A stretch of 64,000 bases of DNA. Source: Patescibacteria group bacterium (GTDB lineage Bacteria; Patescibacteriota; JABMPQ01; JAQVVF01). How positions within the stretch are numbered: the first letter of the stretch is position 1; every line of letters starts with the position of its first letter. The notes under the pieces were generated by a model. It did no database searches. It saw nothing but the letters and a program-made list of their open reading frames with translations, and was not told the origin of the DNA. A program made the position numbers and the translations under genes. The DNA lies in the NCBI GenBank assembly GCA_041662665.1, contig JBAZSC010000004.1, forward strand, positions 10,464 through 74,463. The letters run 5' to 3'. Shown one piece after another: positions 48,140 to 64,000 of the stretch.

Positions 48140-48146
48140 AGTAATT

Positions 48147-48258
48147 AAATCTCAAATTACAAACAAATCTCAAATCACAAAGATACAAACTTTAAATCCT
48201 ATTTTGTAATTTGTCTTTTGTAATTTGTTTGGAATTTGGAATTTGGAATTTTCGTAAC
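48147..48258. repeat. Long inverted repeat, caaattccaaa family, overlapping the 3' end of the 48192-49766 gene
   Basis: Left arm ctcaaattacaaacaaatctcaaatcacaaag; right arm gtaatttgtcttttgtaatttgtttggaatttggaatttggaatt. Confidence 0.7.
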
Positions 48259-49766
48259 GCTAAATTCTGTCCAGCAATAATCAATCCAATCAAAAACCAA
48301 ATATGAATAATATATAAAGAAGAAAAAGTCATGTATTGAATTAAAATTCCAGCAAATGCAACTGTCAGTCCGACAACCAAAGTTTTATCCATAAAATCAT
48401 CGCTCTTAAACCAAACTTTCAGCGTTCTAAAAAAGATAAAAAATATCATTGCCAAAAAAATCAGCAATCCAAAAATTCCAGTCTCTGCCCAAATTTCTAA
48501 AAATTCATTATTTACAATTGCCCAACCATTCTTTGGAATGGAAATTGGACCTTGCGCTACCTCTGGTCCAAAACCTCCAATCCCAACTCCCAAAATCGGA
48601 TTCCTCTGAATCAAAAACCATGCCTGTTTATAAGTTGAATATCTTTCTTCAATTGATGCACCTTCTTCAAATTCTGTTGCTTGAGCTGTAAAATTTTTAA
48701 TATTTACATCTTTCCTTGTAAATTTTAATAAATATATTGTCGATACAATTGCAATTATCGCAATCGCCGCAATTATAATAATTCTTTTCGGCGAAAAAAA
48801 AGATTTAAAATAAAATAATGCAAACAAAACCAACATTCCAGCAAATCCCAAATAAGCACCGCGCGAGACCGTCAAAACCAAATTCAAAACCATCAAACCA
48901 AGTATTACAAATAACACAATTGGCGCACTCAAATTTAGAAGCCGGTTTGTTTTATTGTTTTTTTGTTTTTTTGTTTCTTGCCCTAAAATCAAACCATTGT
49001 CAATTTCATCTTGTTTGCCTCGTTTTCTACTCAATATCATCGCCAAACATATTCCCAAAGGAATTAACAAAAAGTTACCAAAATATAATGGCTCAGAAGA
49101 TGTCCCTTGAATTCTTGGAAAACCGAATACTTGTGATGTATATATATCTCTCAAACCTGTTATTTCTTTTGGAATACCAATCATATCTCCGACAAATTGA
49201 AAAAGTCCATAAATAGACACTACTAATCCAGACAGCAATATCACCCAAACAATTTTTTTAAATAATTCTTTTGAATTAATCAAGCTTGGAATAACTAATG
49301 CCACCAGCATTACAAAAAAATTAAAACCTAAAATTGTCAAACTTCTTGAAATATTTTGAGCATTAGCTAAAGATAAAACAGAAACGCCAGTAAACAAAAA
49401 AACAAAAATTATTAATGGATTTTTAACATAATTATTTTTTTTCTTTGCCAAACTAACCAAAAAAAATGCAATCAAAGTTATCAACGCAAAAACTTGTGAA
49501 ATTCTCACTGTCATACTTCCCATTTCAAACGATCCTAATCTTTCAAAAGGCAGAAAAAAAGCGACTAAAAATAAACCAAAATAAGGTTTTTTAAAAATTG
49601 CCAAAGAAAGCCCAATAAAAATCATCGCACCAACCAAAAACAGAAAAACAGATTTATACTGATCATTTACTAAAACTCCAGTAATAGCGCAAACAACTAA
49701 AACAACCAAAGTCTTAATTAAGTTTTCTTTGCTAAAAATATTCAGTTTTTCAATTGCTTCAGCCAT
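48192..49766 (-). CDS. O-antigen ligase / polymerase (Wzy)-like polytopic membrane protein; C-terminal tail encoded by a repeat element
   Basis: At least 10 TM helices. The last about 20 aa (KFQIPNSKQITKDKLQNRI) are encoded by the inverted repeat. Confidence 0.55.
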   Translation of the reverse strand: MAEAIEKLNIFSKENLIKTLVVLVVCAITGVLVNDQYKSVFLFLVGAMIFIGLSLAIFKKPYFGLFLVAFFLPFERLGSFEMGSMTVRISQVFALITLIAFFLVSLAKKKNNYVKNPLIIFVFLFTGVSVLSLANAQNISRSLTILGFNFFVMLVALVIPSLINSKELFKKIVWVILLSGLVVSIYGLFQFVGDMIGIPKEITGLRDIYTSQVFGFPRIQGTSSEPLYFGNFLLIPLGICLAMILSRKRGKQDEIDNGLILGQETKKQKNNKTNRLLNLSAPIVLFVILGLMVLNLVLTVSRGAYLGFAGMLVLFALFYFKSFFSPKRIIIIAAIAIIAIVSTIYLLKFTRKDVNIKNFTAQATEFEEGASIEERYSTYKQAWFLIQRNPILGVGIGGFGPEVAQGPISIPKNGWAIVNNEFLEIWAETGIFGLLIFLAMIFFIFFRTLKVWFKSDDFMDKTLVVGLTVAFAGILIQYMTFSSLYIIHIWFLIGLIIAGQNLALRKFQIPNSKQITKDKLQNRI

Positions 49767-49892
49767 ATATAAACTTATCCATATTTTATCCCATTTTTAA
49801 CATTTTAGCAATTCGAAAAAACATTCGCTTTATTCGCAAATTCATTCGAGTGAGCAACAAAAAAAGAGCACAAAATGCTCAAAAAAGTTCTA

Positions 49893-50261
49893 TCACTTTC
49901 TCATCGTAAGTTTCAAAACAATAACTCCTCTTTCTTCATCATTTTTCAGACCAAAATGATCATCCTCACAAAATGTAAACCCATCCTTTCTATAACTTTC
50001 AATTACGGGAAAAAGCAACAACAATGTTTCAATGGTTATGCATATTCCTGATTTTAAATCGTCTTTGTCTTCATGAGTTTTAGGCAAAAAACCAATTTTC
50101 ACAAATGGCACTTCTAGATCTACTGATGTCACTTCAGGTTTGCATTCTAAATGAACAGTTCTAACGATACCGCCACCCAAAGTATCCTTTTCCATAAGAC
50201 ATATTAATCCAGATTTTTCTTTCGATTTATCATCTGAACGAACAACTACTATTTCTCCCAT
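49893..50261 (-). CDS. Hypothetical protein (SD-bearing, GC-richer)
   Basis: Start assigned to the ATG at 50261, preceded by aaaaggaggagaaa. The ORF-track start at 50333 lacks an RBS. Confidence 0.4.
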   Translation of the reverse strand: MGEIVVVRSDDKSKEKSGLICLMEKDTLGGGIVRTVHLECKPEVTSVDLEVPFVKIGFLPKTHEDKDDLKSGICITIETLLLLFPVIESYRKDGFTFCEDDHFGLKNDEERGVIVLKLTMRK

Positions 50262-50378
50262 TTTCTCCTCCTTTTCGCCTAGGACATAAAAAAGTACAAT
50301 AAAATATTTTACTAAATTAAAATACAAAGTCAATATTTAATTTCGTAATTTTCAATTTCGATAATTTAATCTATCTAA

Positions 50379-51467
50379 CTAATCTATTATTTTTAACTCG
50401 TTATAAACTTCTAATGTTTCTTCAGCACATTTTTTCCAAGAAAATTTATCAGCTTGCTTTAATCCATCTGCTTTCATCATGATCTGTTTTTCAGGACTTT
50501 TCAAAACTTCTATAATATTTTTCACCCATACTTCTTTATTTTTTGGATCAATTAAAATTCCTGCATCACCGACAACTTCTGGCAACGATGAAGAATTTGA
50601 AGAAATAACTGGCACTCCACATTTCATTGCTTCTAATATCGGCAAACCAAAACCTTCATAAATTGACGGAAATGCAAACAGTTTCGCACCATTATATAAA
50701 TACGGCAAATCACCTTCTTCAACATAATCCGTAAAAATAACTTTATCTTGAAGATTTAGTTCTTTAATCAGTAAAAATATATTTTCATACCTCCACCCTT
50801 TTTTACCCGCAATAACAAGCTTCAAATCTCCAATATCCGAATATCTTAATTTCCGAATATCATTAAATACGTTTACCAAAAATTCTAAATTTTTTCTTGG
50901 CTCAAGTGTCCCAACATTCAAAATATAATTTCCACTAATTCCATATTTTTTCTTAACCTCTTCAATTCTATTCAAATCAGTTATCACTCTAAATTCTGAG
51001 CCCGCTGCCTCATAAATCACTTTTATTTTATTTTCATCTAATCCAAGTTTTTCCACTAAATCTTTTTTCGCACTTTCTGAAATTGTAATAATATAATCTG
51101 CAAACTTATACGACCAAGGCATTAATTTTGTAAAATAAAACCTTGAACTCATTGAAAAATTTTCTGGATAAAGAATTGGAATAATATCATGAATTGTCAC
51201 CACTTTTTTAAAATTTCCAAATTTCGGCACAGAAAAACAAGTTTTGTGAACAACATCTGGTTTTATTAATTTTACTTTTTTTACAAATTTTACCTGATCC
51301 CACCAAATTCTTTCATAAGTTCTCAAATCTTTATTTTTTCCTGAATCAATTAAAAAATACTCATTTTGAGTATCAATTTTTTTTAGATTTTCAACTAAAT
51401 TTTTAACATAAAAACCAAACCCGCTCTTCTTTCCCAACATTGTCTGTGTATCGATGACTATCCTCAT
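50379..51467 (-). CDS. GT4-family (GT-B, glycosyl transferase group 1) glycosyltransferase
   Basis: C-terminal EGFGLPILEAMKCGVPVISSNSSSLPEV signature. Confidence 0.85.
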   Translation of the reverse strand: MRIVIDTQTMLGKKSGFGFYVKNLVENLKKIDTQNEYFLIDSGKNKDLRTYERIWWDQVKFVKKVKLIKPDVVHKTCFSVPKFGNFKKVVTIHDIIPILYPENFSMSSRFYFTKLMPWSYKFADYIITISESAKKDLVEKLGLDENKIKVIYEAAGSEFRVITDLNRIEEVKKKYGISGNYILNVGTLEPRKNLEFLVNVFNDIRKLRYSDIGDLKLVIAGKKGWRYENIFLLIKELNLQDKVIFTDYVEEGDLPYLYNGAKLFAFPSIYEGFGLPILEAMKCGVPVISSNSSSLPEVVGDAGILIDPKNKEVWVKNIIEVLKSPEKQIMMKADGLKQADKFSWKKCAEETLEVYNELKIID

Positions 51468-51477
51468 TTATAAGCAC

Positions 51478-51700
51478 TGTCATCCTGAACCGCAGTGAAG
51501 GATCCCGTTGCTAAATAAATAATCACGGGATTCTTCGGCTTCGGCCTCAGAATGACAATATCTAAAAATATATTTTTCTAAAAAAATAAAAACAGATATT
51601 GGCAAAAATTATTTTTTTCTGAAGGCGAGGATTGTCTGAGCCCCGAACCGCAGTGAAGGGGCGAGTTCCGCAGCCTGAAGAAAAAAATAATTTTTGACAA
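51478..51700. other. Two GC-rich structured elements sharing gaaccgcagtgaagg, separated by an AT-rich spacer
   Basis: tgtcatcctgaaccgcagtgaaggatcccgt...acgggattcttcggcttcggcctcagaatgaca and ctgagccccgaaccgcagtgaaggggcgagttccgcagcctgaag. Confidence 0.4.
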
Positions 51701-51725
51701 TCAACACAAAACATCTTTTTCAACA

Positions 51726-53180
51726 TTATTTAACCTTAATGCCTTCTTTAACCAATTCCTCTTTTCTCAAAGAAATAATTTCTTTAACCTCGCCTATCAA
51801 AATTGCTTTAATTAAAAATGCAATCCCAAAATAAACAGCAACAGCAATCAATCCTCTGATCGCAAAATTCCAAGATTCAGGCATTATAAATAATGCTATT
51901 GCCATAAAAATTCCAGCGATCAAAGATTTGCCAGCAATTTTATAATTCAATCCAACTTTTTCCAGTTTCCAAATTATTAATGCTGTCAGAACTGCAACTG
52001 CAACTTCAGAAACAACTGTTGAAATTGCTGCACCATAATATGAATATTTTGGAATCAACCACAAACATAATACAACTGCCAAAATTGCCGTAAAAATATA
52101 AACCCACATTGTTTTATGCTGTTTATTTGCTGCAACTGCAGCATTTCCAAAAAGATGAGAGAAAAAGATCGCGCCAGTTGCGATAATCAATAATTTCAAA
52201 ACATTTCCAGAATCAGAAAAATCACTACCTCCAAAAAATGCCATTATTGGTTCTGCAAGAAACAACGTTCCTATAATTAACGGAATTACAAAAATAATCA
52301 AAATATCAAATCCTTTTTTATAAATTTCTTCAAACTTCTTTCTATCTTCTTCAAAAAACTTCGACATTACAGGCAACAATAATCCAGCAAAAATCGCTGC
52401 AAAAGTAATTAAGACTTCCAAAACTTTGTATGCCGCGCCGTATACACCGACATCGCTTTCTGATTTCATAATTGATAAAAACAAAGTATCAACTTTAAAA
52501 TAAATTAAATTAAAAACTACTGAAAAAGCCAAAGGCGCAGTCATGATCAAAATCTTTTTCCACAATGCAAAATCAAAAGCTAATTTAACTTTTACATATT
52601 TTCTGGAATAAAGGAACAGCACCAAAAAATTTACAAAATTGGACAACGCAATTCCAAAAATCATATACAAAATTGAAGCGTTTGCATTAATAACAAGTAT
52701 AACAGCAACCAACCAAACAATTCTGCCAGCAACTTCAGCAACTGCCACTTTATACATTGAAAAATATTTTTGAAAAACACCGATTAAAGTTTGATTTAAT
52801 AAAATAAATAAATAAGAAGCAGCTCCAACCACAACGCCCCATTTTACAATTGGATCATAAGGAAAAAGCCAAATTACCAAAGAACCAATCGTCAGAATTA
52901 ACAATCCTGACAATCCTTTTATTGTCATTGCATTACTGACAAATTTATCTTGATCAATATTTTTCTTTGATATTTCACGAGTTACAACCAAATACAAACC
53001 CAAATCAGCCATAATTGAAAAAACAGATAGATAAGCCATAATTGTCGTATATTGTCCAAATCCAGACTGGCCTAAATATCGAAGCATTAATGATACTGTC
53101 ACCAATGCCAAAACCATTCCAATTCCTTTGCCGACAAATTGTATCAGCGTATTATGCGCAACTTTTCTAGCTAAAGACAT
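51726..53180 (-). CDS. Polysaccharide/oligosaccharide flippase, Wzx (MOP superfamily)
   Basis: 14 TM helices with a PST-family N-terminus (LIQFVGKGIGMVLALVTVSLMLRYLG). Confidence 0.75.
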   Translation of the reverse strand: MSLARKVAHNTLIQFVGKGIGMVLALVTVSLMLRYLGQSGFGQYTTIMAYLSVFSIMADLGLYLVVTREISKKNIDQDKFVSNAMTIKGLSGLLILTIGSLVIWLFPYDPIVKWGVVVGAASYLFILLNQTLIGVFQKYFSMYKVAVAEVAGRIVWLVAVILVINANASILYMIFGIALSNFVNFLVLFLYSRKYVKVKLAFDFALWKKILIMTAPLAFSVVFNLIYFKVDTLFLSIMKSESDVGVYGAAYKVLEVLITFAAIFAGLLLPVMSKFFEEDRKKFEEIYKKGFDILIIFVIPLIIGTLFLAEPIMAFFGGSDFSDSGNVLKLLIIATGAIFFSHLFGNAAVAANKQHKTMWVYIFTAILAVVLCLWLIPKYSYYGAAISTVVSEVAVAVLTALIIWKLEKVGLNYKIAGKSLIAGIFMAIALFIMPESWNFAIRGLIAVAVYFGIAFLIKAILIGEVKEIISLRKEELVKEGIKVK

Positions 53181-53318
53181 TCGTTTAAAAAACTAAAAAT
53201 ATAAAAATCACTAACTCATATTATCATTTTTTCTATGCAACAGCAAACAAAAAAGAGCAGAATGCTCTTAATTTCTAATTTCCGAATTTTTATATTTTTA
53301 ATTTTTTATATCCGTACG

Positions 53319-53882
53319 CTATTCCGTATCTTTCATTACAACATCAGAAATCATCTCTTTTTGCTCAAGCTTTGCAGAAACAGGCTTACGTTGTTCTTCA
53401 CGTACTAAATCATCCTTCACAACAATAGCTTTTTTACTAATCGAAACAATTTTATCAAAAGAAATAATTAATTGGCCTTTAAACAATTTTCTTAAAAAAC
53501 CTGTTTTTACATACATTTTTTCAAGTCTATAAGAAATATCATCCATTTCAAAATCAACAACTTTGCCTAATTCTTCTCCACTCTCTGTTACAACATTATT
53601 ATCTTTGATTTTAATTTCTTTTTTCAAAAGTTCTTCAAACAAACCAAAATTATTTAATGGCTTTACTGACATCTCACTATCAACAAAAACATTTCCATCT
53701 CTAATTTCTTTTACATCTTCAATTCGTAAAATTCGCTGTTCTTTCAATAAACCTTCAGACAACTGAAAACCTAATAATTTTCCAGTTTCAAAATTAATTA
53801 TGAATTCATTTATTTTGCCAATTTCTTTATTGCTAGAAACAACCAAAATAGTCGCACCAATTGTCTCGTTGTAATCAATCAT
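53319..53882 (-). CDS. Hypothetical protein, possibly tandem PRC-barrel-like domains
   Basis: Two related halves of about 85 aa; weak PRC-barrel resemblance. Confidence 0.35.
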   Translation of the reverse strand: MIDYNETIGATILVVSSNKEIGKINEFIINFETGKLLGFQLSEGLLKEQRILRIEDVKEIRDGNVFVDSEMSVKPLNNFGLFEELLKKEIKIKDNNVVTESGEELGKVVDFEMDDISYRLEKMYVKTGFLRKLFKGQLIISFDKIVSISKKAIVVKDDLVREEQRKPVSAKLEQKEMISDVVMKDTE

Positions 53883-53884
53883 AA

Positions 53885-53962
53885 ACGTGAATTAAGAATC
53901 ATGAATTAAGAATTATGAATTTTATCATAATTCTTGATTCTTTATTCATGATTCTCGTGGCT
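53885..53962. repeat. Inverted oligo-repeat (gaattaagaatcatgaatt / aattcttgattctttattcatgattc)
   Basis: Related to the words at 21010-21162 and 35270-35330. Confidence 0.55.
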
Positions 53963-54446
53963 TAATTACTATTTTTCTATTCGGATCTTCGCCAATACTT
54001 TCTGTACAAACTAGCTCATTATTTGCCAAACACATATGAACAACTCTCCGCTCATAAGCAGTCATTGGTCTTAATACGATTTCTTTGTTAATTCGAACTA
54101 CTTTTTCCGCAGTATCCAAAGCTATCTTTTTTAAATATTCTTCTTTTTCTTGGCGATAATTATTCACATCAATGTAGAATGGAATTTCAGAAACGCTATT
54201 TTTTCTTTTTAAAAATACTTTTGCTAAATGTTGAATTGCAAATAAATTGCAGCCTCGCTGTCCAATCAAATAATTTGCATCATCAGCCTCAATATTCAAA
54301 CAAACAATTTCCTTTCCTTCTTTTTCGTCAATTCGAGCATTTGTCTTTCCATTGATTCCCATTTTCAGAATTAAATCTTCAACTACTCCTTTTACCTCCT
54401 CGATACTTGTTGCATTGATTTCATTCATATGTTTTAAAATAATCAA
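53946..54446 (-). CDS. jag: Jag/KhpB-type R3H RNA-binding protein
   Basis: KH-like domain plus R3H (LIGQRGCNL...; YERRVVH). Located downstream of yidC. Confidence 0.75.
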   Translation of the reverse strand: MIILKHMNEINATSIEEVKGVVEDLILKMGINGKTNARIDEKEGKEIVCLNIEADDANYLIGQRGCNLFAIQHLAKVFLKRKNSVSEIPFYIDVNNYRQEKEEYLKKIALDTAEKVVRINKEIVLRPMTAYERRVVHMCLANNELVCTESIGEDPNRKIVIKPRES

Positions 54447-54585
54447 TAATCAATTACCAATAATCAATAAATAATCAATTTCCAATAACTAAATAATCAA
54501 TAAAATCGTCGCAATTTTGATTATTAAATTATTGGTTATTGGTTTTTTACTGATTATTGAAATTTGATTATTGGTTATTTAAGCC
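54440..54585. repeat. Inverted oligo-repeat (aataatcaat / attgattatt words)
   Basis: aataatcaataatcaattaccaataatcaataaataatcaatttcc... lies opposite ...ttgattattaaattattggttattgg. Confidence 0.6.
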
Positions 54586-55286
54586 GCTGTTACTCCCGAA
54601 ACTCCAGTTTTCTTAGTCATTATATATTGTTGCGCAATTGCAAATAAAGTTGTTGTAATCCAATAAATTGCTAAACCTGCTGGCAAACTCATCGCAATAA
54701 AAACTGTCATTACTGGCATAAAATATGTCATTTGTTTTCCTAACATTCCTGCCATTTTATCGCTTGTTTTCTTTTGTTTTGAAAATACCATCCATGATTG
54801 CACAAATTGTAAAAGCCCAGCAATAATTGCCAAAATCAAATTTGGAGTTGTCATACTAACTAATCCAAACAACATTGGATTAATGCTTTCTGGTTTTGAA
54901 ACAAAAGAATATAGCAAATCCATGCTAGAATTTTGTAAACCTTTTTGAAATACTCCATACAAAGCAAAAATAATTGGCAATTGAACTAATAAAGGTAAAC
55001 AAGAAGACATTGGATTAATTTTGTTTTCTTTATAAAATTTCATCAATTCTTCGCTTTGTTTTTGCTTGTCGTCTTTAAATTTATTTTTAATCTCATCCAT
55101 TTTTGGTTGCAATCCTTGCAAAGATTGTTGCGATTTCATTGACTTTAATGACAAAGGCAACAAAACAAAACGAATCAAAATCGTTACAATAATAATTGCA
55201 ACACCAATATCACCAATCATGTTATACAGCCAAACTAATAAATTTAATAATGGCTGAAATAAAATTATATTATATAGTTGAATCAT
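54579..55286 (-). CDS. yidC: Membrane protein insertase YidC (short form)
   Basis: GVAIIIVTILIRFVLLPLSLKS and NPMSSCLPLLVQLPIIFALY motifs of the YidC/Oxa1 family. Confidence 0.85.
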   Translation of the reverse strand: MIQLYNIILFQPLLNLLVWLYNMIGDIGVAIIIVTILIRFVLLPLSLKSMKSQQSLQGLQPKMDEIKNKFKDDKQKQSEELMKFYKENKINPMSSCLPLLVQLPIIFALYGVFQKGLQNSSMDLLYSFVSKPESINPMLFGLVSMTTPNLILAIIAGLLQFVQSWMVFSKQKKTSDKMAGMLGKQMTYFMPVMTVFIAMSLPAGLAIYWITTTLFAIAQQYIMTKKTGVSGVTAA

Positions 55287-55302
55287 AGTTTTAAAAATTT
55301 AT

Positions 55303-55416
55303 AAATTACAAATCCCAAAATCCAAACAAATCCCAAATAACAAATTACAAAATATCTTTTGTGGTTTGTAATTTGGAATTTGTAATTTGTTTGGTATTTG
55401 AAATTTGGAATTTCAC
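55303..55416. repeat. Long inverted repeat, caaattccaaa family, overlapping the 3' end of yidD
   Basis: Left arm aaattacaaatcccaaaatccaaacaaatcccaaataacaaattacaaa; right arm tggtttgtaatttggaatttgtaatttgtttggtatttgaaatttggaatttc. Confidence 0.7.
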
Positions 55417-55671
55417 AGGTACGTTATCCACTCCGCCATGACTCCACGGATTACATCTTAACACACGCCAGCCAGCCAACAAAGAGCCTTTAAAAATTCC
55501 ATGTTTTTCAATTGCTTGATATCCATATTCTGAACAAGTCGGATGATATTTGCAAACACCATAAGGAAGATAATTAGATATTAAGCCATGATCAGGAGAA
55601 ATGGTTTTCTGATAAACTTTAATCAAAAGCAATAATGGCAATCTAAATATATACATAAATACAATTATCAA
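55345..55671 (-). CDS. yidD: Membrane protein insertion efficiency factor YidD, with a repeat-encoded C-terminal tail
   Basis: ISPDHGLI...[17 protein letters not shown]...RCNPWSHGG core. The C-terminal 23 aa ([23 protein letters not shown]) lie within the inverted repeat. Confidence 0.75.
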
Positions 55672-55790
55672 TTCACAATTACCAATTTACAATCAATTAA
55701 TCAATGATCAATAATCAATTTTCGACGAAGTTTTGTAAATTGTAAATTAGTAAATTTATTGAAAATTGATAATTGGTAATTGAAAATTAA
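55655..55790. repeat. Inverted oligo-repeat (caattatcaat / attgataattg words)
   Basis: caattatcaattcacaattaccaatttacaatcaattaatcaatgatcaataatcaatt lies opposite aaattgataattggtaattgaaaatt. Confidence 0.55.
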
Positions 55791-56131
55791 ACTATTCCCG
55801 CCATACTCAAAACTCTATCCAAAGCCTGATTAACTTCGGTATAGCTTTTTCCAATAATTTCCGGCCTCACCAGTACAATTATATCAAATCCTTTTTTCAA
55901 TTTACAATTTTTTATTTTTAATCTAAATACTTCTCTTAGAATTCTTTTAATTTTGTTCCGAATTACAGCCTTTTTTGAGATTTTTAATCCAACTAAAAAA
56001 CCAACGCGCGTTACATCTAATCCGTTTGGTAAAAATCTTATTGCTAGAAACTCGTCGCCACAGAATCTGCCTCTTTTATGAATTCTGCCAAAATCATCTT
56101 TCTTTGTCAGCCTGTTTTCTTTTTGAAGCAT
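55787..56131 (-). CDS. rnpA: RNase P protein component
   Basis: Conserved RNR-like basic motif (KAVIRNKIKRILRE); 114 aa; between rpmH and yidD. Confidence 0.85.
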   Translation of the reverse strand: MLQKENRLTKKDDFGRIHKRGRFCGDEFLAIRFLPNGLDVTRVGFLVGLKISKKAVIRNKIKRILREVFRLKIKNCKLKKGFDIIVLVRPEIIGKSYTEVNQALDRVLSMAGIV

Positions 56132-56225
56132 TATCTTAGTTCTAAAAGTTATAAAGTTATAAAGTTCGTAAAGTCCGTAACTTTATAAACTTTATAACTT
56201 TATGAACAGCACGAACTAACGCAAA

Positions 56226-56366
56226 CTAAACAGTCAGTTTTTTTCGGCCTTTTGCTCTTCTTCTTTTCAGCACATTTCTTCCGCCTTTTGTGCTCATTTT
56301 CTGCAAAAAACCATGAGTTCTAGCTCTTTTTCTCTTTTTCGGTTGATATGTTCTTTTTGTTGCCAT
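56226..56366 (-). CDS. rpmH: 50S ribosomal protein L34
   Basis: [46 protein letters not shown]. The ORF-track N-terminal extension is discarded. Confidence 0.9.
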
Positions 56367-56499
56367 ATGTCTCAATTTACCAGAAAAAAACTGATTAGTC
56401 AATCCAATTACGATATTGAGAAAACAATAAAATCTTGTTAATATAAAAATATACTGAGGCAAAAAATAATATTTTTGGCTCTAATTTACCTAAAAAAGT

Positions 56500-57582
56500 A
56501 TGCCAGAACAAAAAACAAATACGCAAAAAATTCAACCAGTAAAAAAATATCAAAAAAATAAAAAAATAATCGTTGCCTGTTGTTCAATTTTTGCTGGATT
56601 TTTTATTATTTTATTTTTTACATTTATCGCAATTTGGTTTTTTGTTTTGCCAAAAAGTTCTAATCCTCCAAAAAATCTCCCCAACATTTCCCAAAATATT
56701 GCTTTAAATTCACCAGCAGAATCTAACTCCCAAAATTATTTAATTTCCGAAAATATCATCCTACAAAATATTGGCCTGCAAGATTCTTATATGCAAACTG
56801 TCTATATTGCTAAATTCCATGATCTTGCTCCTTATCAAGATGTTTTAGAAGAAACAATCTCACCAACAAATTATGAAATTATTAAAGATGAAAATAATAA
56901 TGAATATCTAAAATATACTTTTTATAACTTGTCTGCAAATGAATCAAGAAATTTTAATCTTCAATACAAAATAAAAATAAATGCAGTTAATTATGATTTA
57001 AAAAATTGCCAAGGAAATTCTACGAATCAATTTTTATTGCCAGAAAAATCAGTTGAATCAGACAATCCAGAAATAATTGATTTAGCAAAAAGTATCACCA
57101 AAAATTCTCAAAATCAATGCCAGGCTTCGAAAGACATTTACAATTGGATTGGTGACAATATTAGCTATCCAGGCTATATTCCAGATGCCAAAGGCGCATT
57201 ATGGGCATTAGAAAATAAACAAGGAGATTGCACAGAATTTGCTGACCTAAATATTGCTTTAAATCGCGCTGATAATATTCCTGCTCGTTTTGTTGAAGGT
57301 TTAGTTTATCAATCCGATCAAGAAACAGATCCATCACAAATGAAACATGATTGGTCGCAAGTTTATTTGCCAAGCACAGGATGGGTGCCAGTTGATCCAA
57401 CTTTTGGCAGACTATCAACAAATCGCAAAGATTATTTTGCCGAAATTCCAGATAATCATGCCATTTTAACAATTGGGCAGAATTTAGAAATATTGCATGG
57501 CTTTTATTTTTATTATTATGAATATAATGGATCAACCATAGAAACAACTCAAGAAAATTGGCGAATGCAAAAGACAAATTAA
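56500..57582 (+). CDS. Transglutaminase-like (Cys-His-Asp papain-fold) domain protein with an N-terminal TM anchor
   Basis: KQGDCTEFADL (Cys), HDWSQVYLP (His) and WVPVDPT (Asp). Confidence 0.75.
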   Translation: MPEQKTNTQKIQPVKKYQKNKKIIVACCSIFAGFFIILFFTFIAIWFFVLPKSSNPPKNLPNISQNIALNSPAESNSQNYLISENIILQNIGLQDSYMQTVYIAKFHDLAPYQDVLEETISPTNYEIIKDENNNEYLKYTFYNLSANESRNFNLQYKIKINAVNYDLKNCQGNSTNQFLLPEKSVESDNPEIIDLAKSITKNSQNQCQASKDIYNWIGDNISYPGYIPDAKGALWALENKQGDCTEFADLNIALNRADNIPARFVEGLVYQSDQETDPSQMKHDWSQVYLPSTGWVPVDPTFGRLSTNRKDYFAEIPDNHAILTIGQNLEILHGFYFYYYEYNGSTIETTQENWRMQKTN

Positions 57583-57589
57583 AAATTTT

Positions 57590-57660
57590 TCAAAATACCT
57601 TATCTTAAAGGTATTTTTTTGACACAAAAAAAGCTAGATAAATCTAGCTAACAAGGTACT
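57590..57660. terminator. Bidirectional terminators (aataccttatcttaaaggtatt-T7 for the + strand; agctagatttatctagct-T7 for the minus-strand operon)
   Basis: Two hairpins, each followed by a T-run on the appropriate strand. Confidence 0.55.
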
Positions 57661-57671
57661 ATTCACAACTC

Positions 57672-57941
57672 TTATGCCGACAAAGCTTGATCAATCAAGA
57701 CTCGCAAACCTTGATCAGTAATCCTATACAATCTTCTTCGAGGTCTTCTCAAACTAACATGTTCCTCTCTGCGACTTGCAATATCATTTCTATCTTCCAA
57801 TTGATCCAGCCAAACATATACAGTTCCACGCTTCAATTTTCCTGAAGATCTTTCGATAATATCCAATCCATACATCTCATTTCCATTTTCTTGCAAAATT
57901 TCCAAAATCAATATTTCCAATCCAGAATAATCATTCATCAC
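57672..57941 (-). CDS. Winged-helix transcriptional regulator, PadR-like
   Basis: LEILILEILQENGNEMYGLDII...GTVYVWLDQLEDRNDI resembles the PadR wHTH. The SD aggaagaggagg precedes the ATG. Confidence 0.45.
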   Translation of the reverse strand: MMNDYSGLEILILEILQENGNEMYGLDIIERSSGKLKRGTVYVWLDQLEDRNDIASRREEHVSLRRPRRRLYRITDQGLRVLIDQALSA

Positions 57942-57960
57942 AGCCTCCTCTTCCTAAAAT

Positions 57961-58452
57961 TCAGGAAATCGCCGAACTGATTGTGTTAGCAAGATAACTA
58001 AAACGCATAGGCAACAAATAACTTCCTCTCGGATTTTTCGCAAGATGCTCTTTCGCCTCCATAATATGTAGAGTCCACACTGCAACACTCGGAACATTCA
58101 AGGGCTTTATCCATTCAATTAGCTCCTCAACGGAAATTGCATACTTCTTCCTCTCGCAAAAATAATTCGATAAATTAGGCAAAAATCGCCTATGACTATT
58201 ATGATTATCACGATCACTTGCGACAGCAAAATAAATGTTTCTCGAAGATTGCACATTTCTCACAATACCAAAACCGATCAATCCACAAGGTGACTTCACT
58301 GCATTTGTCCACTCAATAACCAGAATAGTTCCAGAACTAACAATTTCATTAACCGTATCATCAGTCAATAATCTTTCTAAAAATCCACGAACCGGCATTT
58401 CTTCTAAATGCAACATTACTTGTTCTGTTCCACCTTTAAACATCGTCACCAT
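57961..58452 (-). CDS. Hypothetical protein, paralog A2 (tandem paralog of 58490-58954)
   Basis: Start at the MVTMFKGG ATG at 58452, preceded by aaaaaggaggaagaca. Shares about 45% identity by eye with the upstream paralog. Confidence 0.55.
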   Translation of the reverse strand: MVTMFKGGTEQVMLHLEEMPVRGFLERLLTDDTVNEIVSSGTILVIEWTNAVKSPCGLIGFGIVRNVQSSRNIYFAVASDRDNHNSHRRFLPNLSNYFCERKKYAISVEELIEWIKPLNVPSVAVWTLHIMEAKEHLAKNPRGSYLLPMRFSYLANTISSAIS

Positions 58453-58489
58453 TGTCTTCCTCCTTTTTCCTATGAAAAGCAATCAAGAA

Positions 58490-58954
58490 TTATAATGCCG
58501 AATTAATTGGATAAATACAAAAACGCAATGGAAGAAAGCTATCACTACGACCAGAAGAAGATTGTTCTTTTGCTTCCATAATATGATACGCCCATATATC
58601 AGCTGCAGGAATATTCAATGGCTTTATCCAATCCATTAATTCATCAACAGAAATTCCGGTCATTTTCCTATCGCAACAAACTTTATTAATTGCAAAAAAC
58701 TTACCTTCTCCTTGATCCTTTGCACCAGCAAAAAATACATTTTTTGAAGTTTCCATATCTCGTAAAATTCCAAACCCAATCATTCGACAAGGCCTTTTTA
58801 CTGCACTCGTCCATTCCAAAACCAAGATAGTTCCATCACTAACAATTTGATCAACTACGTCATCTCTCAATAATTTCTCCAAAAATTCACGAACTGGCAT
58901 CTCTTCAAAACGTCTTTCCAATTCTTCTTCAGTCCCTTCAAACATTGTTACCAT
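58490..58954 (-). CDS. Hypothetical protein, paralog A1
   Basis: Start at the MVTMFEG ATG at 58954, preceded by aaaaggaggagaaaagaca. Conserved blocks EEMPVR.FLE.LL.DD, GTILV.EWT.AVK.PC..IGFGI and HIMEAKE. Confidence 0.55.
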   Translation of the reverse strand: MVTMFEGTEEELERRFEEMPVREFLEKLLRDDVVDQIVSDGTILVLEWTSAVKRPCRMIGFGILRDMETSKNVFFAGAKDQGEGKFFAINKVCCDRKMTGISVDELMDWIKPLNIPAADIWAYHIMEAKEQSSSGRSDSFLPLRFCIYPINSAL

Positions 58955-59110
58955 TGTCTTTTCTCCTCCTTTTCTGCGAACGATAATTTTTAAAGAGCAT
59001 TTTTCAATATATAATAAACTGAACAAAAAAACAAGACTAAAACCTTGTCTTTGTGTAACTACAAATTTTAGATTGCCAAAAGGCTTAAGTAAGATTAAAA
59101 TAACAATATT

Positions 59111-59198
59111 GGAGAGGTGCCAGAGAGGCCGAATGGGCTGGTCTCGAAAACCGGTATGCCCGAAAGGGCATCGTGGGTTCGACTCCCACCCTCTCCGC
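59111..59198 (+). tRNA. tRNA-Ser (anticodon CGA)
   Basis: GGAGAGG acceptor stem; anticodon loop CTCGAAA; long variable arm GTATGCCCGAAAGGGCATC; T-arm GTGGGTTCGACTCCCAC; discriminator G. Confidence 0.85.
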
Positions 59199-59310
59199 CT
59201 TCGCCCGCCGAAGCTTTAGCAAAAGCGAAGGCGGGATAGTCAAATACACGAATCAATGTTTCTGTTTTTTCTAATTCACGGGCGGGCTTCGGCGGACAAA
59301 GTCCGTTAAG
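59196..59310. repeat. GC-rich palindromic elements (CCGCC-GAAG...GAAG-GGCGG family) abutting the tRNA-Ser 3' end
   Basis: cccgccgaagctttagcaaaagcgaaggcggg and cgggcgggcttcggcggacaaagtccg. Confidence 0.6.
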
Positions 59311-59385
59311 AAATATTAATTTTAACTTAAATAAAAAATTATCCATACAAATCCGCGTGTAATCCGCATTAATCCGCGCGTAAAA

Positions 59386-60837
59386 CTAGAGTTTTCCTAA
59401 ATCCAATTCTTCATCAAATCTTATTTGTTTTACAAAATCAGGCATGTGACTGACCATGATCATCGCTCCTTCGTAGTCATTAATTGCTTTAGCAATAATT
59501 GGCAAATGACGAAAATTAATATGATTAGTTGGTTCATCCAAAATTAATAAACCTGGCTTCATTAAAGTTAATCTTGCAAAATTCAATAATCCTTTTTGCC
59601 CTTCTGACAAATCTCCAACTTTATGGCTCATCATGCTGCCATCAATCAAAAAACCAGATGCAACTGAACGCATGTTATGTTCATCTAGTCCTTCAGCTAA
59701 AATGCTTGAAAGAGAATCATAAACAGTTTGATCAAAATCTAAATTAGAAAAATCTTGGCTATAATATCCAACTTTAACATCTTCTAAAATTTTAGCATTT
59801 TCATCTTTATTGTTTACTAGAGTTCGAAGCAATGTACTCTTGCCTATTCCATTTGGTCCAACAACTAAAAGATGCATTCTTTTTCGAATCACTTTTTCAG
59901 TTTCTTTCAAAACTGGCTCGTGATTTTTAATCACTTTAACTGCTTTAATTTTTACAATTTCTCCAGAAATATCTTGAACTGGAATTTCAAATTCTCTAAT
60001 CGTCTTATCTTCTTTTCTAACATCAACCATATTTTCTTCCATTTCTTGAGCTTCCAATTTTAATTTTCTTGCCAATTGACGCATCTTTCCGCCTTTGTTT
60101 GCAAAAAAATTAACTTTTTCTTTGCGATCAATAATTGATTTTTTTAACTGAGCATTTTTTCTTTGCTCTCTAAGAACTCTACTTTTTATTTCCTCTACTA
60201 CTGAAAAATAATCGCCGACATAAGTTTCAATCTTATGTGTAAAAACATCAAGATAAATAACGCCTTCAGTAAAACAATTCAAAAAATCAGCATCGTGCGA
60301 AATCACAATTACTGTCTTATCATACATCACTAAAAATTCAATCAAGTGTTCAATGCCGGCTTGATCAAGATTATTAGTCGGCTCATCCAATAACAAAATA
60401 TCTGAATTTTGAATCAACGCATTTGCCAACAATAATCTTGCTTGTTGTCCGCCAGATAAATCTCCGACTTTTCGATCAGTTGGCACATCTAAATTTACTG
60501 CTTGTAAAACCTTGAATATTTTACTTGCCATATCAGGCTGTTCTACTTCAAAAGCTTTCTCAAAATACTCGCTAACCTTCAAAGAAAAATCTTCTCGCTT
60601 CATCACTTGGCGAGCAGTTGCAATTGTTGCTCCATTTGAAATATGAATTTGACCAGATGTTGGCTGTAATTCTCCCATAATTAAAGCAAATAACGAACTT
60701 TTTCCAGCGCCATTTTGACCCATCAATGTTATTTTAGCTCCTTTTCGAACACTAAAACTGACCTCGTCCAAAACAGGCTTATCATGATCATATTCAAAAT
60801 TTACTTCATCAAATCTTAAAATTACTTCTTCAGCCAT
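59386..60837 (-). CDS. ABC-F family ATPase (tandem ABC domains, no TMD; EttA/Uup-like translation factor)
   Basis: Two Walker A motifs (GQNGAGKSS; GPNGIGKST), two signatures (LSGGQQ; LSEGQK) and two Walker B motifs (LLLDEPTN; LILDEPTN). Confidence 0.9.
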   Translation of the reverse strand: MAEEVILRFDEVNFEYDHDKPVLDEVSFSVRKGAKITLMGQNGAGKSSLFALIMGELQPTSGQIHISNGATIATARQVMKREDFSLKVSEYFEKAFEVEQPDMASKIFKVLQAVNLDVPTDRKVGDLSGGQQARLLLANALIQNSDILLLDEPTNNLDQAGIEHLIEFLVMYDKTVIVISHDADFLNCFTEGVIYLDVFTHKIETYVGDYFSVVEEIKSRVLREQRKNAQLKKSIIDRKEKVNFFANKGGKMRQLARKLKLEAQEMEENMVDVRKEDKTIREFEIPVQDISGEIVKIKAVKVIKNHEPVLKETEKVIRKRMHLLVVGPNGIGKSTLLRTLVNNKDENAKILEDVKVGYYSQDFSNLDFDQTVYDSLSSILAEGLDEHNMRSVASGFLIDGSMMSHKVGDLSEGQKGLLNFARLTLMKPGLLILDEPTNHINFRHLPIIAKAINDYEGAMIMVSHMPDFVKQIRFDEELDLGKL

Positions 60838-60948
60838 AAAAATAAAATAAAAATGCGCCTTTCACGCAAGTGGAATTAATATAACATATTATCCAAAAAT
60901 GTACAGACTATTTGATTTAAAAAAATAAATAAAAAATAACACAAAAAT

Positions 60949-61626
60949 ATGTTCGAAAATCTCACCTTTACTATTATTATTTCTATTGCCAGTTTAGCTA
61001 TCCTTGACAGCATCAATCCGCTTGAACTATTAGCTGCCTTATTCATTTTTTCTATTAAAAAACCGATCAGCCGTTTTCTACCTTATGTTATTGGTATCTT
61101 TTTCTTTCACTTTTTAGTAGGATTCATTCTTTATTACACTCTTCATTTTATCCTAAATCTTAACATCTTTAATTCGCCTATCTTTGACCGCTCTCTTGAA
61201 ATCATTGCAGGCATTCTTTTAATCATTGTTGGACTAAAAATGAAAAAACATAATAAATCAACAATTAAAACAATTCTTAATCCAAAACCGCTCTATACTT
61301 TTCTGCTAGGTCTAGGCATTACAGCTTCTGCTCTCCCAAGCTCTGCCGTCTATTTTTCTGCTTTAGGAATTATTGCTAATGATGATCTAAAATTTGCAAG
61401 TCTTGCCCTGCTTTTGCTTATCTATAATATTATCTTTGTTTTACCGCTCTTTATTTTGCTGGCGATTTATTTATTATTTCAAAAACGTTCAGAAAAAGTA
61501 TTTTCCAAAATCAGAAATTTTATTCAGCATCGTTTAAATTCAATTTTAAAAGTAATTATAATACTAGTCGGATCATTTTTAATTTTAGACTTTATTCTTT
61601 ATCTTTTTCACACGCCAATTCTCTAA
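60949..61626 (+). CDS. Hypothetical polytopic membrane protein (DsbD_2/LysE-like topology, no Cys pair)
   Basis: Six TM helices with an N-terminal LAILDSINPLELL motif. Confidence 0.4.
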   Translation: MFENLTFTIIISIASLAILDSINPLELLAALFIFSIKKPISRFLPYVIGIFFFHFLVGFILYYTLHFILNLNIFNSPIFDRSLEIIAGILLIIVGLKMKKHNKSTIKTILNPKPLYTFLLGLGITASALPSSAVYFSALGIIANDDLKFASLALLLLIYNIIFVLPLFILLAIYLLFQKRSEKVFSKIRNFIQHRLNSILKVIIILVGSFLILDFILYLFHTPIL

Positions 61627-61660
61627 AAAAATAAAAAAGACCAAATCAATTGGTCAAAAC
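61627..61660. terminator. Bidirectional terminator
   Basis: gaccaaatcaattggtc flanked by A-runs and T-runs. Confidence 0.5.
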
Positions 61661-62349
61661 GCACTATGGGTGCATTCACAAGGATCTTTATGACAATTAT
61701 GACAGCCATTGCCATAATATTTCAAAACAACTGCCTCCAAATCAATATTCAATAAATTTGCAATTGCAATCGTCCAAGCTAATGTATCAGCTAATTCCAA
61801 TGCAAATTCTTTTTCCATCTCATCTAAAGTTAAACTTCTTTCAGGAATTCTCATCAACAGTTGCAACAACTCGCTAATCTCTTTAAACAAACGATTCAAA
61901 CAGTTTTCTAAACCTTTCTGCTCATTCCTTTTTCCATAAATCTCTTTCATTGAAGCACACCATTCTTTTAAAGTCCATTCCATCTGAACCACAAAATCTA
62001 TAACAGCATCAGGATCGTAAGACAATTTTGGATCCAATCTCCTTTCCGAACATTTGCATGATTTTTGCAAACAATAACTGCAAACACCTCTTGGATATTT
62101 TCTTGCCATATATTCCACCAACGGCAATTTCCAAAAATGGTTAGCAACGCAGAAAATCCTTGCTACTACACTTGCCAATTCTTTTTCAACATCACCATTT
62201 TTTCGAATTGCATCCTGCAAATTTCCGATTCCAACATTCAAAAAATTAATTCGCGCAGACAAACTTGGCAAAAATATTCTGTTGCGCCTTTCATAAAGTC
62301 CCCAAAAATGAATCATCAAATCCTGCAAACTTCTCTCTTCTTTTTCCAT
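61654..62349 (-). CDS. MazG-like nucleotide pyrophosphohydrolase with Cys-rich (CxxC) insertions (SD-bearing)
   Basis: Two MazG-like EExxE/D helices (EFALELADTLAWTIAIANLLNIDLE) plus CSYCLQKSCKC and CHNCHKDPCEC. The SD gaaaaggaggagaaaggg precedes the ATG. Confidence 0.45.
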   Translation of the reverse strand: MEKEERSLQDLMIHFWGLYERRNRIFLPSLSARINFLNVGIGNLQDAIRKNGDVEKELASVVARIFCVANHFWKLPLVEYMARKYPRGVCSYCLQKSCKCSERRLDPKLSYDPDAVIDFVVQMEWTLKEWCASMKEIYGKRNEQKGLENCLNRLFKEISELLQLLMRIPERSLTLDEMEKEFALELADTLAWTIAIANLLNIDLEAVVLKYYGNGCHNCHKDPCECTHSAF

Positions 62350-62441
62350 CCCTTTCTCCTCCTTTTCGAAGTTCTAAATATTTTGTTGTAACAAAGAACG
62401 AATTATTATAAGATAATATGAATATTAATTAAAGTCAAATC

Positions 62442-63170
62442 ATGACCATCTTAAAACAAATAGACCGAGAATTAAAACAACATATTGATCAAGGATACAA
62501 AGCAGGATCAATTAGATATTTCAAAGAAAAAATAAAAGTAATTGGCGTAAGAAGTAAGATTGTCAACAAGATTTCCCAAAAATATTGGAAAAATTTATCC
62601 ACCGAAGTCTCGCAAGACGGAGGTGGATCAAAATTAGAAATCTTTAATCTTTGCGAACAACTATTAAAAACTGGTTATAGTGAAAAAATCAGCATTGCCT
62701 TAGATTGGACATTTAGACTTAAAAAAGATTTTGAAAAATCAGATTTTAAAATTTTTACGTCTTGGCTTTCAAAGTATATTAGCAATTGGGCATCTGATGA
62801 CGATTTATGCACTCACCCATTAGGCTATCTTATTTATAAATTTCCAGAATTTTTACCGCAATTGCAAAAATTAACCAAATCAAAAAATAGATGGGAACGA
62901 CGTGCTTCAGCAGTCACATTTATTTATCCAATCCGCTATGATAAAAAATTTCTGCCACATGTTTTTAAAACTGCCAAAATCTTATTGCAAGATCAAGATG
63001 ATCTAGTCCAAAAAGGTTATGGCTGGATGTTAAAAGTTGCCAGCCAAAAATTTCCAGCAGATGTTTTAAAATTTATCAATCAACACAAATCCAAAATGCC
63101 ACGCACAGCTTTAAGATATGCCATTGAAAAATATCCACAAAGGATAAGAAGAGAAATCTTGAAAAATTAG
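62442..63170 (+). CDS. DNA alkylation repair protein, AlkD/AlkC-like HEAT-repeat family
   Basis: Helical repeat protein of matching size (242 aa) with a conserved Trp/Tyr layout. Carries an in-frame GC-rich hairpin insert at 62597-62630. Confidence 0.45.
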   Translation: MTILKQIDRELKQHIDQGYKAGSIRYFKEKIKVIGVRSKIVNKISQKYWKNLSTEVSQDGGGSKLEIFNLCEQLLKTGYSEKISIALDWTFRLKKDFEKSDFKIFTSWLSKYISNWASDDDLCTHPLGYLIYKFPEFLPQLQKLTKSKNRWERRASAVTFIYPIRYDKKFLPHVFKTAKILLQDQDDLVQKGYGWMLKVASQKFPADVLKFINQHKSKMPRTALRYAIEKYPQRIRREILKN

Positions 63171-63296
63171 CTTCTACCCTGCCCACGGCAGGAGTTAATC
63201 AACGCACAAAATAAAGACTTTTTCGCAAAACACGAACCCTTGCCACGCCTGCCCACCGTAGCATGTGCGAAGGTGGGGGCAAGGTAGAAAACTAAA
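63171..63296. other. GC-rich multi-hairpin structured element (candidate small RNA or REP cluster)
   Basis: Outer pairing ttctaccctgcc/ggcaaggtagaa; inner hairpins cctgcccacggcagg and cccaccgtagcatgtgcgaaggtggg. Confidence 0.4.
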
Positions 63297-63367
63297 AAAA
63301 TATCCGCAAAAAATCAAAAAACAAATTCTAGCAAAGACTTTATAAACTTTATAACTTTACAAACTTT

Positions 63368-64000
63368 ATGAACTTGTCTAACCGCGCATCAAACACGCCC
63401 GCTTCTCCTATTCGAAAATTGTTCCCCAAAGCATCAGAAGCCGAAAAAAAAGGCATCAAAATTTACAAATTGAATATCGGCCAGCCAGATTTAAAAACTC
63501 CTAACTGCATTAAAAAACGTTGCCAAAATTATCCAAAAGATTTAGTCTATGAACCTTCACCTGGAATTCCTGAATTAATTTCAACTTGGGCAAAATATTT
63601 TGCCAAAGATAATTTGCCAGTCACAGATAAAGACTTAATTATTACAACTGGCGGCAGCGAAGCTATTGTTTTTTCACTTCTTGCCACTTGCGATCCAAAT
63701 GATGAAGTTATTGTTTTCGAACCTTTTTATGCCAATTACAAATCTTACGCTATTCAAACTAGCGTCAAATTAGTTCCAGTTACTTTAAAAATTGAAGATA
63801 ATTTTCATCTTCCAAATGCTGAAGAAATTGAAAAAAAGATAACTTCAAAAACCAAAGCAATTTTAATCAATAATCCAAGCAATCCAACTGGAGCAGTTTA
63901 CAAAAAAAATGAATTGCAGATGATTACTGATTTAGCTATCAAGCACAATTTATTTATCATTTCTGATGAAGTCTATAATGAATTTGTTTTAGACAAAAAA
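63368..64000 (+). CDS. Class I/II pyridoxal-phosphate aminotransferase (aspartate aminotransferase-like), 5' part; gene runs past the window end
   Basis: ATG at 63368. My translation is MNLSNRASNTPASPIRKLF...IYKLNIGQPDLKTP...ITTGGSEAI...FEPFYANY...LINNPSNPTGAVY, typical of AspC-family enzymes. Open to position 64000. Confidence 0.8.
   Translation, partial: MNLSNRASNTPASPIRKLFPKASEAEKKGIKIYKLNIGQPDLKTPNCIKKRCQNYPKDLVYEPSPGIPELISTWAKYFAKDNLPVTDKDLIITTGGSEAIVFSLLATCDPNDEVIVFEPFYANYKSYAIQTSVKLVPVTLKIEDNFHLPNAEEIEKKITSKTKAILINNPSNPTGAVYKKNELQMITDLAIKHNLFIISDEVYNEFVLDKK

Follow-up and report, generated by a model that had tools for sequence, protein, structure and literature searches.

Is a compact three-gene operon that abuts a tRNA gene a recent arrival or a resident part of the chromosome, and what might it do for its host? 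The question is raised by a 64,000-nt stretch of a Patescibacteria group bacterium (assembly GCA_041662665.1, contig JBAZSC010000004.1, positions 10,464-74,463), hereafter called the window, in which two paralogous genes, A and B, and a gene for a PadR-like regulator lie head to tail on the minus strand beside tRNA-Ser(CGA). The answer favoured here, with a probability of roughly 0.65, is that these genes form a clade-restricted accessory operon, probably autoregulated by PadR, in a positionally conserved but hypervariable slot. That slot, found in a small group of Saccharibacteria-like Patescibacteria, has tRNA-Ser(CGA) on one side and the transglutaminase-rpmH-rnpA-yidD-yidC cluster on the other. 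The genes of the operon and the two boundaries of its slot are as follows.

58490-58954, minus strand: gene A, first gene of the operon, called from its open reading frame (ORF) and Shine-Dalgarno (SD) sequence; 154 aa, acidic (isoelectric point, pI, 4.8), cytoplasmic
57961-58452, minus strand: gene B, paralogue of A; 163 aa, pI 7.8
57672-57938, minus strand: PadR gene, at the end of the operon; 88 aa when read from the ATG at 57938
59111-59199, plus strand: tRNA-Ser(CGA), divergent from the operon and upstream boundary of the slot
56500-57582, plus strand: transglutaminase-like gene, other flank of the slot

An initial annotation of this DNA had described three co-oriented, tightly spaced minus-strand ORFs here, and these are indeed present. 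The gaps between A and B (37 nt) and between B and the PadR gene (22 nt) hold nothing except SD sequences, which makes co-transcription of the three genes almost certain. The lengths of 173 and 178 aa given to the two paralogues had to be revised, as these are maximal ORFs read from an upstream TTG; read from the SD-preceded ATGs, the proteins are 154 and 163 aa long, and their M-[VA]-T-M-F N-terminus is conserved in all homologues at both the protein and the DNA level. Likewise, a distance of about 85 nt from the operon start to the tRNA fits only the over-long ORF; the first ATG of gene A lies 156 nt from the tRNA 5' end, and it is on this 5' side that the operon sits. For the PadR gene, the ATG at 57938 (SD spacing of 5 nt) is a more likely start than the GTG at 57941, which would give 89 aa. 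The product of gene A is identical in sequence to NCBI protein WC663_05915 ('Patescibacteria group bacterium'). A and B are true paralogues, with 52% identity over 151 aa (E=3e-58), and the conserved blocks first reported for them (EEMPVR.FLE.LL.DD, GTILV.EWT.AVK.PC..IGFGI and HIMEAKE) were all found; inspection by eye revealed no evident signal peptide in either protein.

The suggestion that the third gene is PadR-like also held. Its product matches Pfam PF03551 (PadR) at 43.6 bits against a cutoff of 27 (E=2.9e-11), covering profile positions 1-73 of 75, and its nearest match in the PDB is the PadR-family entry 5dym (E=3.5e-5), followed by LmrR-type entries. Its orthologues have diverged to 36-50% identity, a level at which Pfam barely detects or misses them. 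A literature search on PadR proteins in Saccharibacteria gave nothing relevant.

A and B, for their part, belong to an exceptionally small family. A word-indexed search of 5.8 billion proteins returned A itself and a single relative, and an exhaustive HMMER scan of 1.84 billion cluster representatives gave four matches. One of these, the 1087-aa repeat protein P0005, was rejected as a spurious low-complexity match. A profile search recovered exactly five clusters, namely A, B, P0002, P0003 and P0004, which align with full-length conservation, invariant motifs and a C-terminal LPxRF motif. Searches of A and B against Pfam, NCBIfam, PHROGs and PADLOC yielded nothing meaningful (the sole PADLOC match was to E1-E2, E=0.016, 12 bits), single-sequence and profile searches of the PDB yielded nothing, and the same was true of gene A in a tblastn search of phage and plasmid collections and a scan of viral contigs. 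Structure prediction with AlphaFold was unusable from a single sequence (predicted local distance difference test, pLDDT, of 38) and reached moderate confidence with the five-sequence alignment (pLDDT 66.6; predicted TM-score, pTM, 0.67), giving a model that begins with three short N-terminal helices and a small sheet, continues through a variable loop and two helices, and ends in a strand. The HEPN, PIN or nucleotidyltransferase folds that had been put forward for the paralogues found no match in Pfam, NCBIfam, PADLOC or the PDB, by sequence or by fold, at a model pLDDT of only 66.6, and the invariant residues of the A/B alignment do not form the catalytic motifs Rx4-6H, acidic quartet or GS-DxD. 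As such, A and B appear to represent a new, unclassified family of soluble proteins confined to this clade.

Such extreme rarity, coupled with the lack of an assigned function, might suggest that A and B do not function at all, being either pseudogenes in decay or ORFs that arose by chance in a variable intergenic region. Conservation over the full length of five sequences with invariant motifs, ratios of nonsynonymous to synonymous substitution (omega) of 0.3-0.5, conserved SD sequences and promoters, and the pTM of 0.67 all argue to the contrary, and this explanation is considered extremely improbable.

The positional history of the operon was traced in related genomes, whose loci were located with the family profile, with exact-protein look-ups and by way of genes related to the transglutaminase-like gene at the flank. 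The genome most closely related bears the label Candidatus Saccharibacteria. Two of the loci, L004 and L007, are collinear with window positions 47228-64000 at about 80% nucleotide identity (72-85% by blastn), and tRNA-Ser(CGA) is conserved in L004, L005, L007, L011 and L013. In L004 the slot reads tRNA-Ser, genes of 117, 120, 118 and 157 aa, a 99-aa PadR-like gene and the transglutaminase gene; in L007 it reads tRNA-Ser, genes of 130, 133 and 157 aa, a 93-aa PadR-like gene and the transglutaminase gene. The two 157-aa products are the family members P0002 (L004) and P0003 (L007), and P0002 is the positional orthologue of B, as a blastn block joins L004 9981-12193 to window 58471-56226. L011, with flanks nearly identical to those of L007, has 130-aa, 123-aa and PadR genes; a spermidine-synthase-like gene stands in place of the 157-aa gene, and the relation of the 123-aa gene to the family is uncertain. 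In L016, where the PadR gene lies at 2295-2690 on the minus strand, PadR is joined in frame to the first ~12 codons of the family gene (MKRTMFEGSEEEV), with the family promoter, untranslated region and SD ahead of them, a structure that indicates an in-frame deletion that would have removed the family gene. The more distant L005 lacks PadR and possesses a single family member, P0004, at a distance of 3.6 kb from tRNA-Ser(CGA). Finally, L013, with a transglutaminase 56% identical to that of the window, has neither PadR nor a recognised family gene, and its 162-aa orphan was judged unrelated by eye only. Persistence of the operon at this tRNA in all relatives, an outcome that the initial annotation had named as contrary to acquisition, was thus largely observed: L004 and L007 carry homologues, L011 and L016 carry variants, and the exceptions are L013 and the missing 157-aa gene of L011.

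In four relatives the gene that comes first after tRNA-Ser is a further conserved orphan of 117-135 aa, with the motif EYKEASLINE...QTLFETLQNL...SF.DWQFF, which the window lacks. The copy scanned against Pfam (L004, 117 aa) gave no match. Its copies are located as follows.

L004 8519-8872: orphan copy
L007 8968-9360: orphan copy
L011 11581-11973: orphan copy
L016 2729-3127: orphan copy

Gene content also varies on the 3' side of the tRNA, where a radical-SAM gene is inserted in L004 and RsgA and NUDIX genes in L007. The corresponding spacer of the window, from the tRNA-Ser 3' end to the ABC-F stop codon (59200-59385), is 186 nt long and about 45% GC, with inverted repeats (59194-59224 with 59266-59296), a 21-nt tandem repeat (59341-59382) and no Rfam match. 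Because relatives hold inserted genes at this position, the spacer may be a scar of gene turnover on the 3' side. A MazG-like gene (window 61654-62349, minus strand; L005 4165-4887; L007 4569-5279) with a Pfam MazG match (E=1.6e-5), several CxxC motifs and a strong SD lies near tRNA-Ser in all relatives examined; it is directly adjacent to the tRNA in L005 and 75% identical in L007.

How long the operon has resided in its slot can be gauged from substitution rates. Among the window, L004 and L007, flanking proteins are 72-93% identical, as compared with 46-54% for the A/B family and 36-40% for PadR. Synonymous divergence (dS) is nevertheless similar, at 0.8-1.6 for the module and 0.8-1.2 for the flanks. 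Because the two are comparable, the module appears to have been diverging for approximately as long as the chromosome around it. Nonsynonymous divergence (dN) of the module is 2-4 times that of the flanks, and the family has omega values of 0.32-0.51 and PadR of 0.35-0.54, relative to 0.12-0.24 for the transglutaminase and RnpA genes, which would fit selection that is relaxed or diversifying but still purifying. The duplication that gave rise to A and B (dS 1.14) is, by this measure, about as old as the split between the three genomes.

A different pattern is seen between L007 and L011. Their flanks differ little (dS 0.17-0.45; 95-99% identical), whereas dS reaches 0.83-0.88 for PadR, which is 68% identical, and for the 133/123-aa gene; this excess suggests allelic exchange or hypermutation at the locus. 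In addition, the window PadR is closer to that of L016 (50% identity) than to the PadR proteins of genomes whose flanks are more similar to its own. These observations and the differing gene content together indicate local hypervariability and, probably, the exchange of alleles or cassettes among related lineages.

Composition had originally marked the operon as foreign. Its GC content, which had been put at about 40%, does exceed the 31.4% of the window; the real value is a more modest 36.4% (57672-58954; A 35.1%, B 38.0%, PadR 35.6%), which a compositional check places at only the 92nd percentile among windows of the same size, the real outlier being the region 40667-43918 described below. 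At third codon positions, the GC content (GC3) of A is 0.23, under the gene mean of 0.24, and only B has a raised GC3.

The SD signals are more distinctive. When anti-SD duplex energies were calculated for 52 long ORFs, each allowed its best-pairing candidate start, the median best energy was -4.1 kcal/mol and nine of the 52 fell at -8 or lower. The SD sequences of B and PadR reach about -11.8 kcal/mol, and gene A has a strong SD as well, so that the strong sites reported for all three genes are a genuine anomaly in an SD-poor genome. These sites are the following.

58960-58973, minus strand: extended SD AAAAGGAGGAGAAA of gene A
58464-58459, minus strand: SD AGGAGG of gene B
57950-57944, minus strand: SD GAGGAGG of the PadR gene

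Three exact copies of the 14-mer AAAAGGAGGAGAAA are present in the window (50262-50275, 58960-58973 and 62353-62366), each directly before a gene start, namely that of a 122-aa orphan (start 50261), gene A and a 231-aa MazG-like/CxxC gene (start 62349), and no dinucleotide shuffle reached the observed number of near-matches. Nearly all strong-SD genes of the window are lineage-specific orphans, whereas rnpA, yidC and the true start of the ABC-F gene are without an SD; a wider pattern in this genome would seem to be that a strong SD marks lineage-specific accessory genes rather than housekeeping genes. Two other strong-SD orphans (122 and 125 aa) were considered as members of the A/B family and proved unrelated. 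The anti-SD is generally kept in the candidate phyla radiation except for one Parcubacteria subgroup (PMC9297842), and for this reason the strong SD sites are probably functional. Upstream of the three AAAAGGAGGAGAAA copies nothing is common beyond the SD, and the same was found when the upstream regions of all strong-SD genes were aligned, leaving a PadR regulon unsupported.

These features bear on the possibility that the operon is a genomic islet recently integrated at tRNA-Ser(CGA), with its GC content and SD sequences as leftovers from a donor. The elevated GC, the presence of all three genes among the few with strong SDs (most others being orphans too), the adjoining tRNA and the variation in slot content between relatives would be expected of such an islet. 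Integrative elements normally land at the 3' end of a tRNA, however, and the module is on the 5' side. The absence of an integrase and of a direct repeat of the tRNA end, noted at the outset, was borne out, as no integrase is found among the neighbours (ABC-F, SfLAP, MazG-like, DNA_alkylation, transglutaminase, RnpA, YidD, YidC, Jag and PRC genes) and the 23-nt tRNA end occurs once in the window with up to three mismatches allowed. Moreover, homologous modules occupy the same position in L004, L007, L011 and L016, their dS resembles that of the flanks in the window, L004 and L007, and A does not have a raised GC3. The family was found neither outside the clade nor in the phage, plasmid and viral collections, so that no donor lineage is apparent. 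Integration at the tRNA is thus largely refuted by synteny, and a recent islet is judged quite improbable. What survives of the acquired module first proposed is its accessory nature, its atypical composition and SD signals and the variable content of its slot; recent tRNA-mediated acquisition does not fit the 5' position or the homologous modules of relatives.

If the operon is a long-standing resident of its slot, how might it be expressed? The cis-elements that bound and punctuate it are listed here.

57622-57649, minus strand: intrinsic terminator of the operon from a terminator scan, with a 7-bp stem (AGCTAGA/TCTAGCT) followed by a T-run, the hairpin and T-run spanning 57649-57632
57590-57619, plus strand: convergent hairpin and T-run (AAATACCTT...AAGGTATTTTTTT), read off the sequence and missed by the terminator scan
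59006-59034, minus strand: candidate operon promoter, TTGTTT (59034-59029), a 17-nt spacer and TATATT (59011-59006)
59025-59051, minus strand: hairpin AAGAC/GTCTT and T-tract, just upstream of and overlapping the -35, in a conserved AAGG..TTGGCCTTG-T7 block
58992-59000, minus strand: conserved box ATGYTCTTT (ATGCTCTTT box), 6 nt downstream of the -10, at about the start of transcription

The operon terminator lies within 57600-57660, where a shared terminator had been placed. The convergent hairpin would terminate the transglutaminase-like gene and so form the downstream edge of the slot. A consensus promoter scan offered an overlapping alternative to the candidate promoter at 59007-58980, the tRNA has a promoter of its own (TTGCCA-17-TAAAAT, 59073-59101), and an Rfam scan of the region found nothing but the tRNA. 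Seven upstream regions from four genomes were aligned, those of gene A in the window, the PadR gene of L016, the 157-aa gene in each of L004 and L007, and the genes of 120, 133 and 123 aa, and they proved to be a single homologous cassette, comprising the hairpin and T-tract, TTG(T/C)TT-17-TAT(A/C)TT, the box ATGYTCTTT (in five of the seven) and a strong SD. The box is a candidate operator or initial transcribed sequence, and might conceivably serve as a PadR site. In relatives each small gene of the module has its own promoter cassette; in the window the sole copy belongs to A, on whose transcript B and PadR depend.

From these elements a working model can be proposed. One sigma-70-type promoter just downstream of a terminator hairpin would drive A, B and PadR, with one intrinsic terminator ending the transcript. 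PadR would most likely repress this promoter, thereby controlling both itself and A and B; the best available argument for such autoregulation is that the family promoter drives PadR directly in L016. A and B would then be inducible cargo, translated efficiently by way of their unusually strong SD sites. The slot itself would be inherited with the chromosome yet turn over rapidly, with promoter-plus-gene cassettes duplicated, lost, fused and probably exchanged between related lineages, while amino-acid change runs at 2-4 times the rate of the flanks under purifying selection that can still be detected.

Rapid turnover of this sort is also what would be expected of a conflict module (i.e., a toxin-antitoxin (TA) system, an anti-phage defence or an immunity array), in which A and B would be effectors or immunity proteins and the winged-helix protein an antitoxin or regulator, all caught in an arms race with phages or a host bacterium. 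The tandem paralogues with their own promoter cassettes, the changes in copy number and gene turnover among close relatives, and values of dN and omega above those of the flanks are in keeping with this proposal. The order of the genes, effector and then helix-turn-helix protein, recalls reverse-order TA pairs, of which higBA and mqsRA are examples, and PadR matches a phage protein family without an assigned function, phrog_4278 (E=3.3e-7). On the other hand, A and B have no significant PADLOC match, no Pfam toxin or immunity family and no recognised toxin fold, no invariant Cys/His pair able to form a catalytic dyad is found in the five-sequence alignment, and omega lies well below 1. The would-be partners are also uncoupled. 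The family gene stands alone in L005 and PadR is present without an intact family gene in L016, and obligate TA pairing is contradicted because each of these genomes carries one partner only; similarly, L011 has PadR without a recognised full-length family member, its 123-aa gene being of uncertain relation. A conflict module is therefore considered unlikely.

Several points weigh against the view of the locus as a PadR-autoregulated accessory operon that descends with its chromosome. PadR proteins dimerise through a C-terminal helix (subfamily 2) or a C-terminal domain (subfamily 1). In the window PadR only ~13 residues follow the wing (…YRITDQGLRVLIDQALSA), while solved relatives are 108-132 aa long; the protein thus seems to be without most of the C-terminal dimerisation helix, and its dimerisation and mode of DNA binding are uncertain. 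The classical PadR operator is a palindrome, ATGT-N8-ACAT, in the protein's own or target promoter, and this palindrome is absent from 58955-59110 with up to one mismatch allowed. A and B are putative cargo, and the lack of a fold match to their model is a weak negative at a pLDDT of only 66.6 from five sequences. Regarding descent, the co-divergence argument is approximate, as dS among the window, L004 and L007 is about 1 and near saturation; the excess dS between L007 and L011 suggests that descent has not been purely vertical and has involved some horizontal exchange; and the comparison covers about six related genomes.

A bolder version of the accessory-operon reading would extend it to the shorter genes of the relatives' slots. 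These share the N-terminal motif and a homologous promoter cassette with the A/B family. The 118-aa gene matches the family over just 26 residues, and hhalign gives the 120/123/133-aa genes a probability of 51% for one sequence and 3.7% profile-to-profile, so that homology is suggestive only. It is tempting to speculate that A and B, perhaps with these 118-133-aa neighbours, represent an unrecognised superfamily with a new fold, in which terminator-promoter-SD-gene cassettes diversify at a hypervariable slot under a co-evolving minimal PadR repressor, as a contingency or conflict locus peculiar to episymbiotic Saccharibacteria that would serve phage defence, immunity or host interaction. This idea is possible, if rather doubtful at present.

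The genomes of Patescibacteria are tiny and encode few regulators, many of their proteins lack an assigned function, and orphan families are commonplace among them. An orphan operon as such will therefore be no surprise to specialists, but one so well delimited should be useful for annotation and as a source of structural and functional targets. If the locus is indeed a fixed, fast-diversifying and self-regulated cassette, it would be a candidate site of episymbiont adaptation to hosts or phages. Its cassette organisation, its co-evolving minimal PadR and the link between strong SDs and accessory genes are all worth following up.

Elsewhere in the window, three other features were observed. 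The region 40667-43918, at 38-45% GC, consists of orphan genes that each have a strong SD: a 178-aa gene (start 41203, minus strand), a 256-aa gene (start 42248, minus strand) and a 266-aa gene (start 43118, plus strand). A Pfam scan gave no match for the first two or for the third, which was scanned as a 273-aa ORF from 43097. The 178- and 256-aa genes have GCGCG-GGAGGGAAAGAGA in common upstream and P[IV]AGTGKHHG[DE] as a common motif in their products. Another slot with variable orphan content is bounded by a GT4 glycosyltransferase gene (50379-51467) and the next conserved gene downstream (48192-49766), which corresponds by collinearity to the Wzy_C gene of L007 and L011. Here the window has the 122-aa SD-bearing orphan (49893-50261, minus strand), L004 has only 174 nt (17858-18031), L007 has a different, 138-aa orphan (17799-18215) without significant BLASTP similarity to that of the window, and L011 has a 163-aa orphan (1875-2366). 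Finally, a dispersed repeat of about 49 nt with 7-nt periodicity (AAATTCCAAATTCCAAATTCCAAACAAATTACAAAT.ACAAATTACAAA) is present in copies that are 82-90% identical. Two of the copies lie in inverted orientation on either side of the yidD/yidC junction, one of them overlapping yidD at the 3' end of its ORF. The copies are listed below.

10791-10839, plus strand: ~49-nt repeat
20400-20448, minus strand: ~49-nt repeat
48203-48251, minus strand: ~49-nt repeat
55303-55351, plus strand: ~49-nt repeat
55365-55413, minus strand: ~49-nt repeat

Taken as a whole, the operon resembles three kinds of known system without coinciding with any of them. Like tRNA-linked genomic islands, it adjoins a tRNA, is mildly atypical in composition and lies in a region that varies between relatives; unlike them, it is on the 5' side, has no integrase, recombinase or attachment-site repeat, and keeps its position across the clade. 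Relative to the immunity arrays of polymorphic-toxin and defence loci, it has no toxin gene nearby and no SUKH, Imm or similar match in Pfam or PADLOC, but it has in common with them small, soluble tandem paralogues, copy-number variation, fast divergence and the duplication of promoter-plus-gene cassettes, a likeness that is organisational only. Finally, in comparison with the single-domain PadR proteins of subfamily 2 (e.g., LmrR of Lactococcus lactis and 5dym), the regulator is 88 aa rather than 108-132 aa long, has almost no C-terminal dimerisation helix, and is encoded by the last gene of its operon rather than the first, behind a promoter without ATGT-N8-ACAT. It nonetheless has the winged helix-turn-helix of these proteins and aligns to the 5dym and LmrR chains, and, like many PadR genes, its gene is co-transcribed with its presumed targets.

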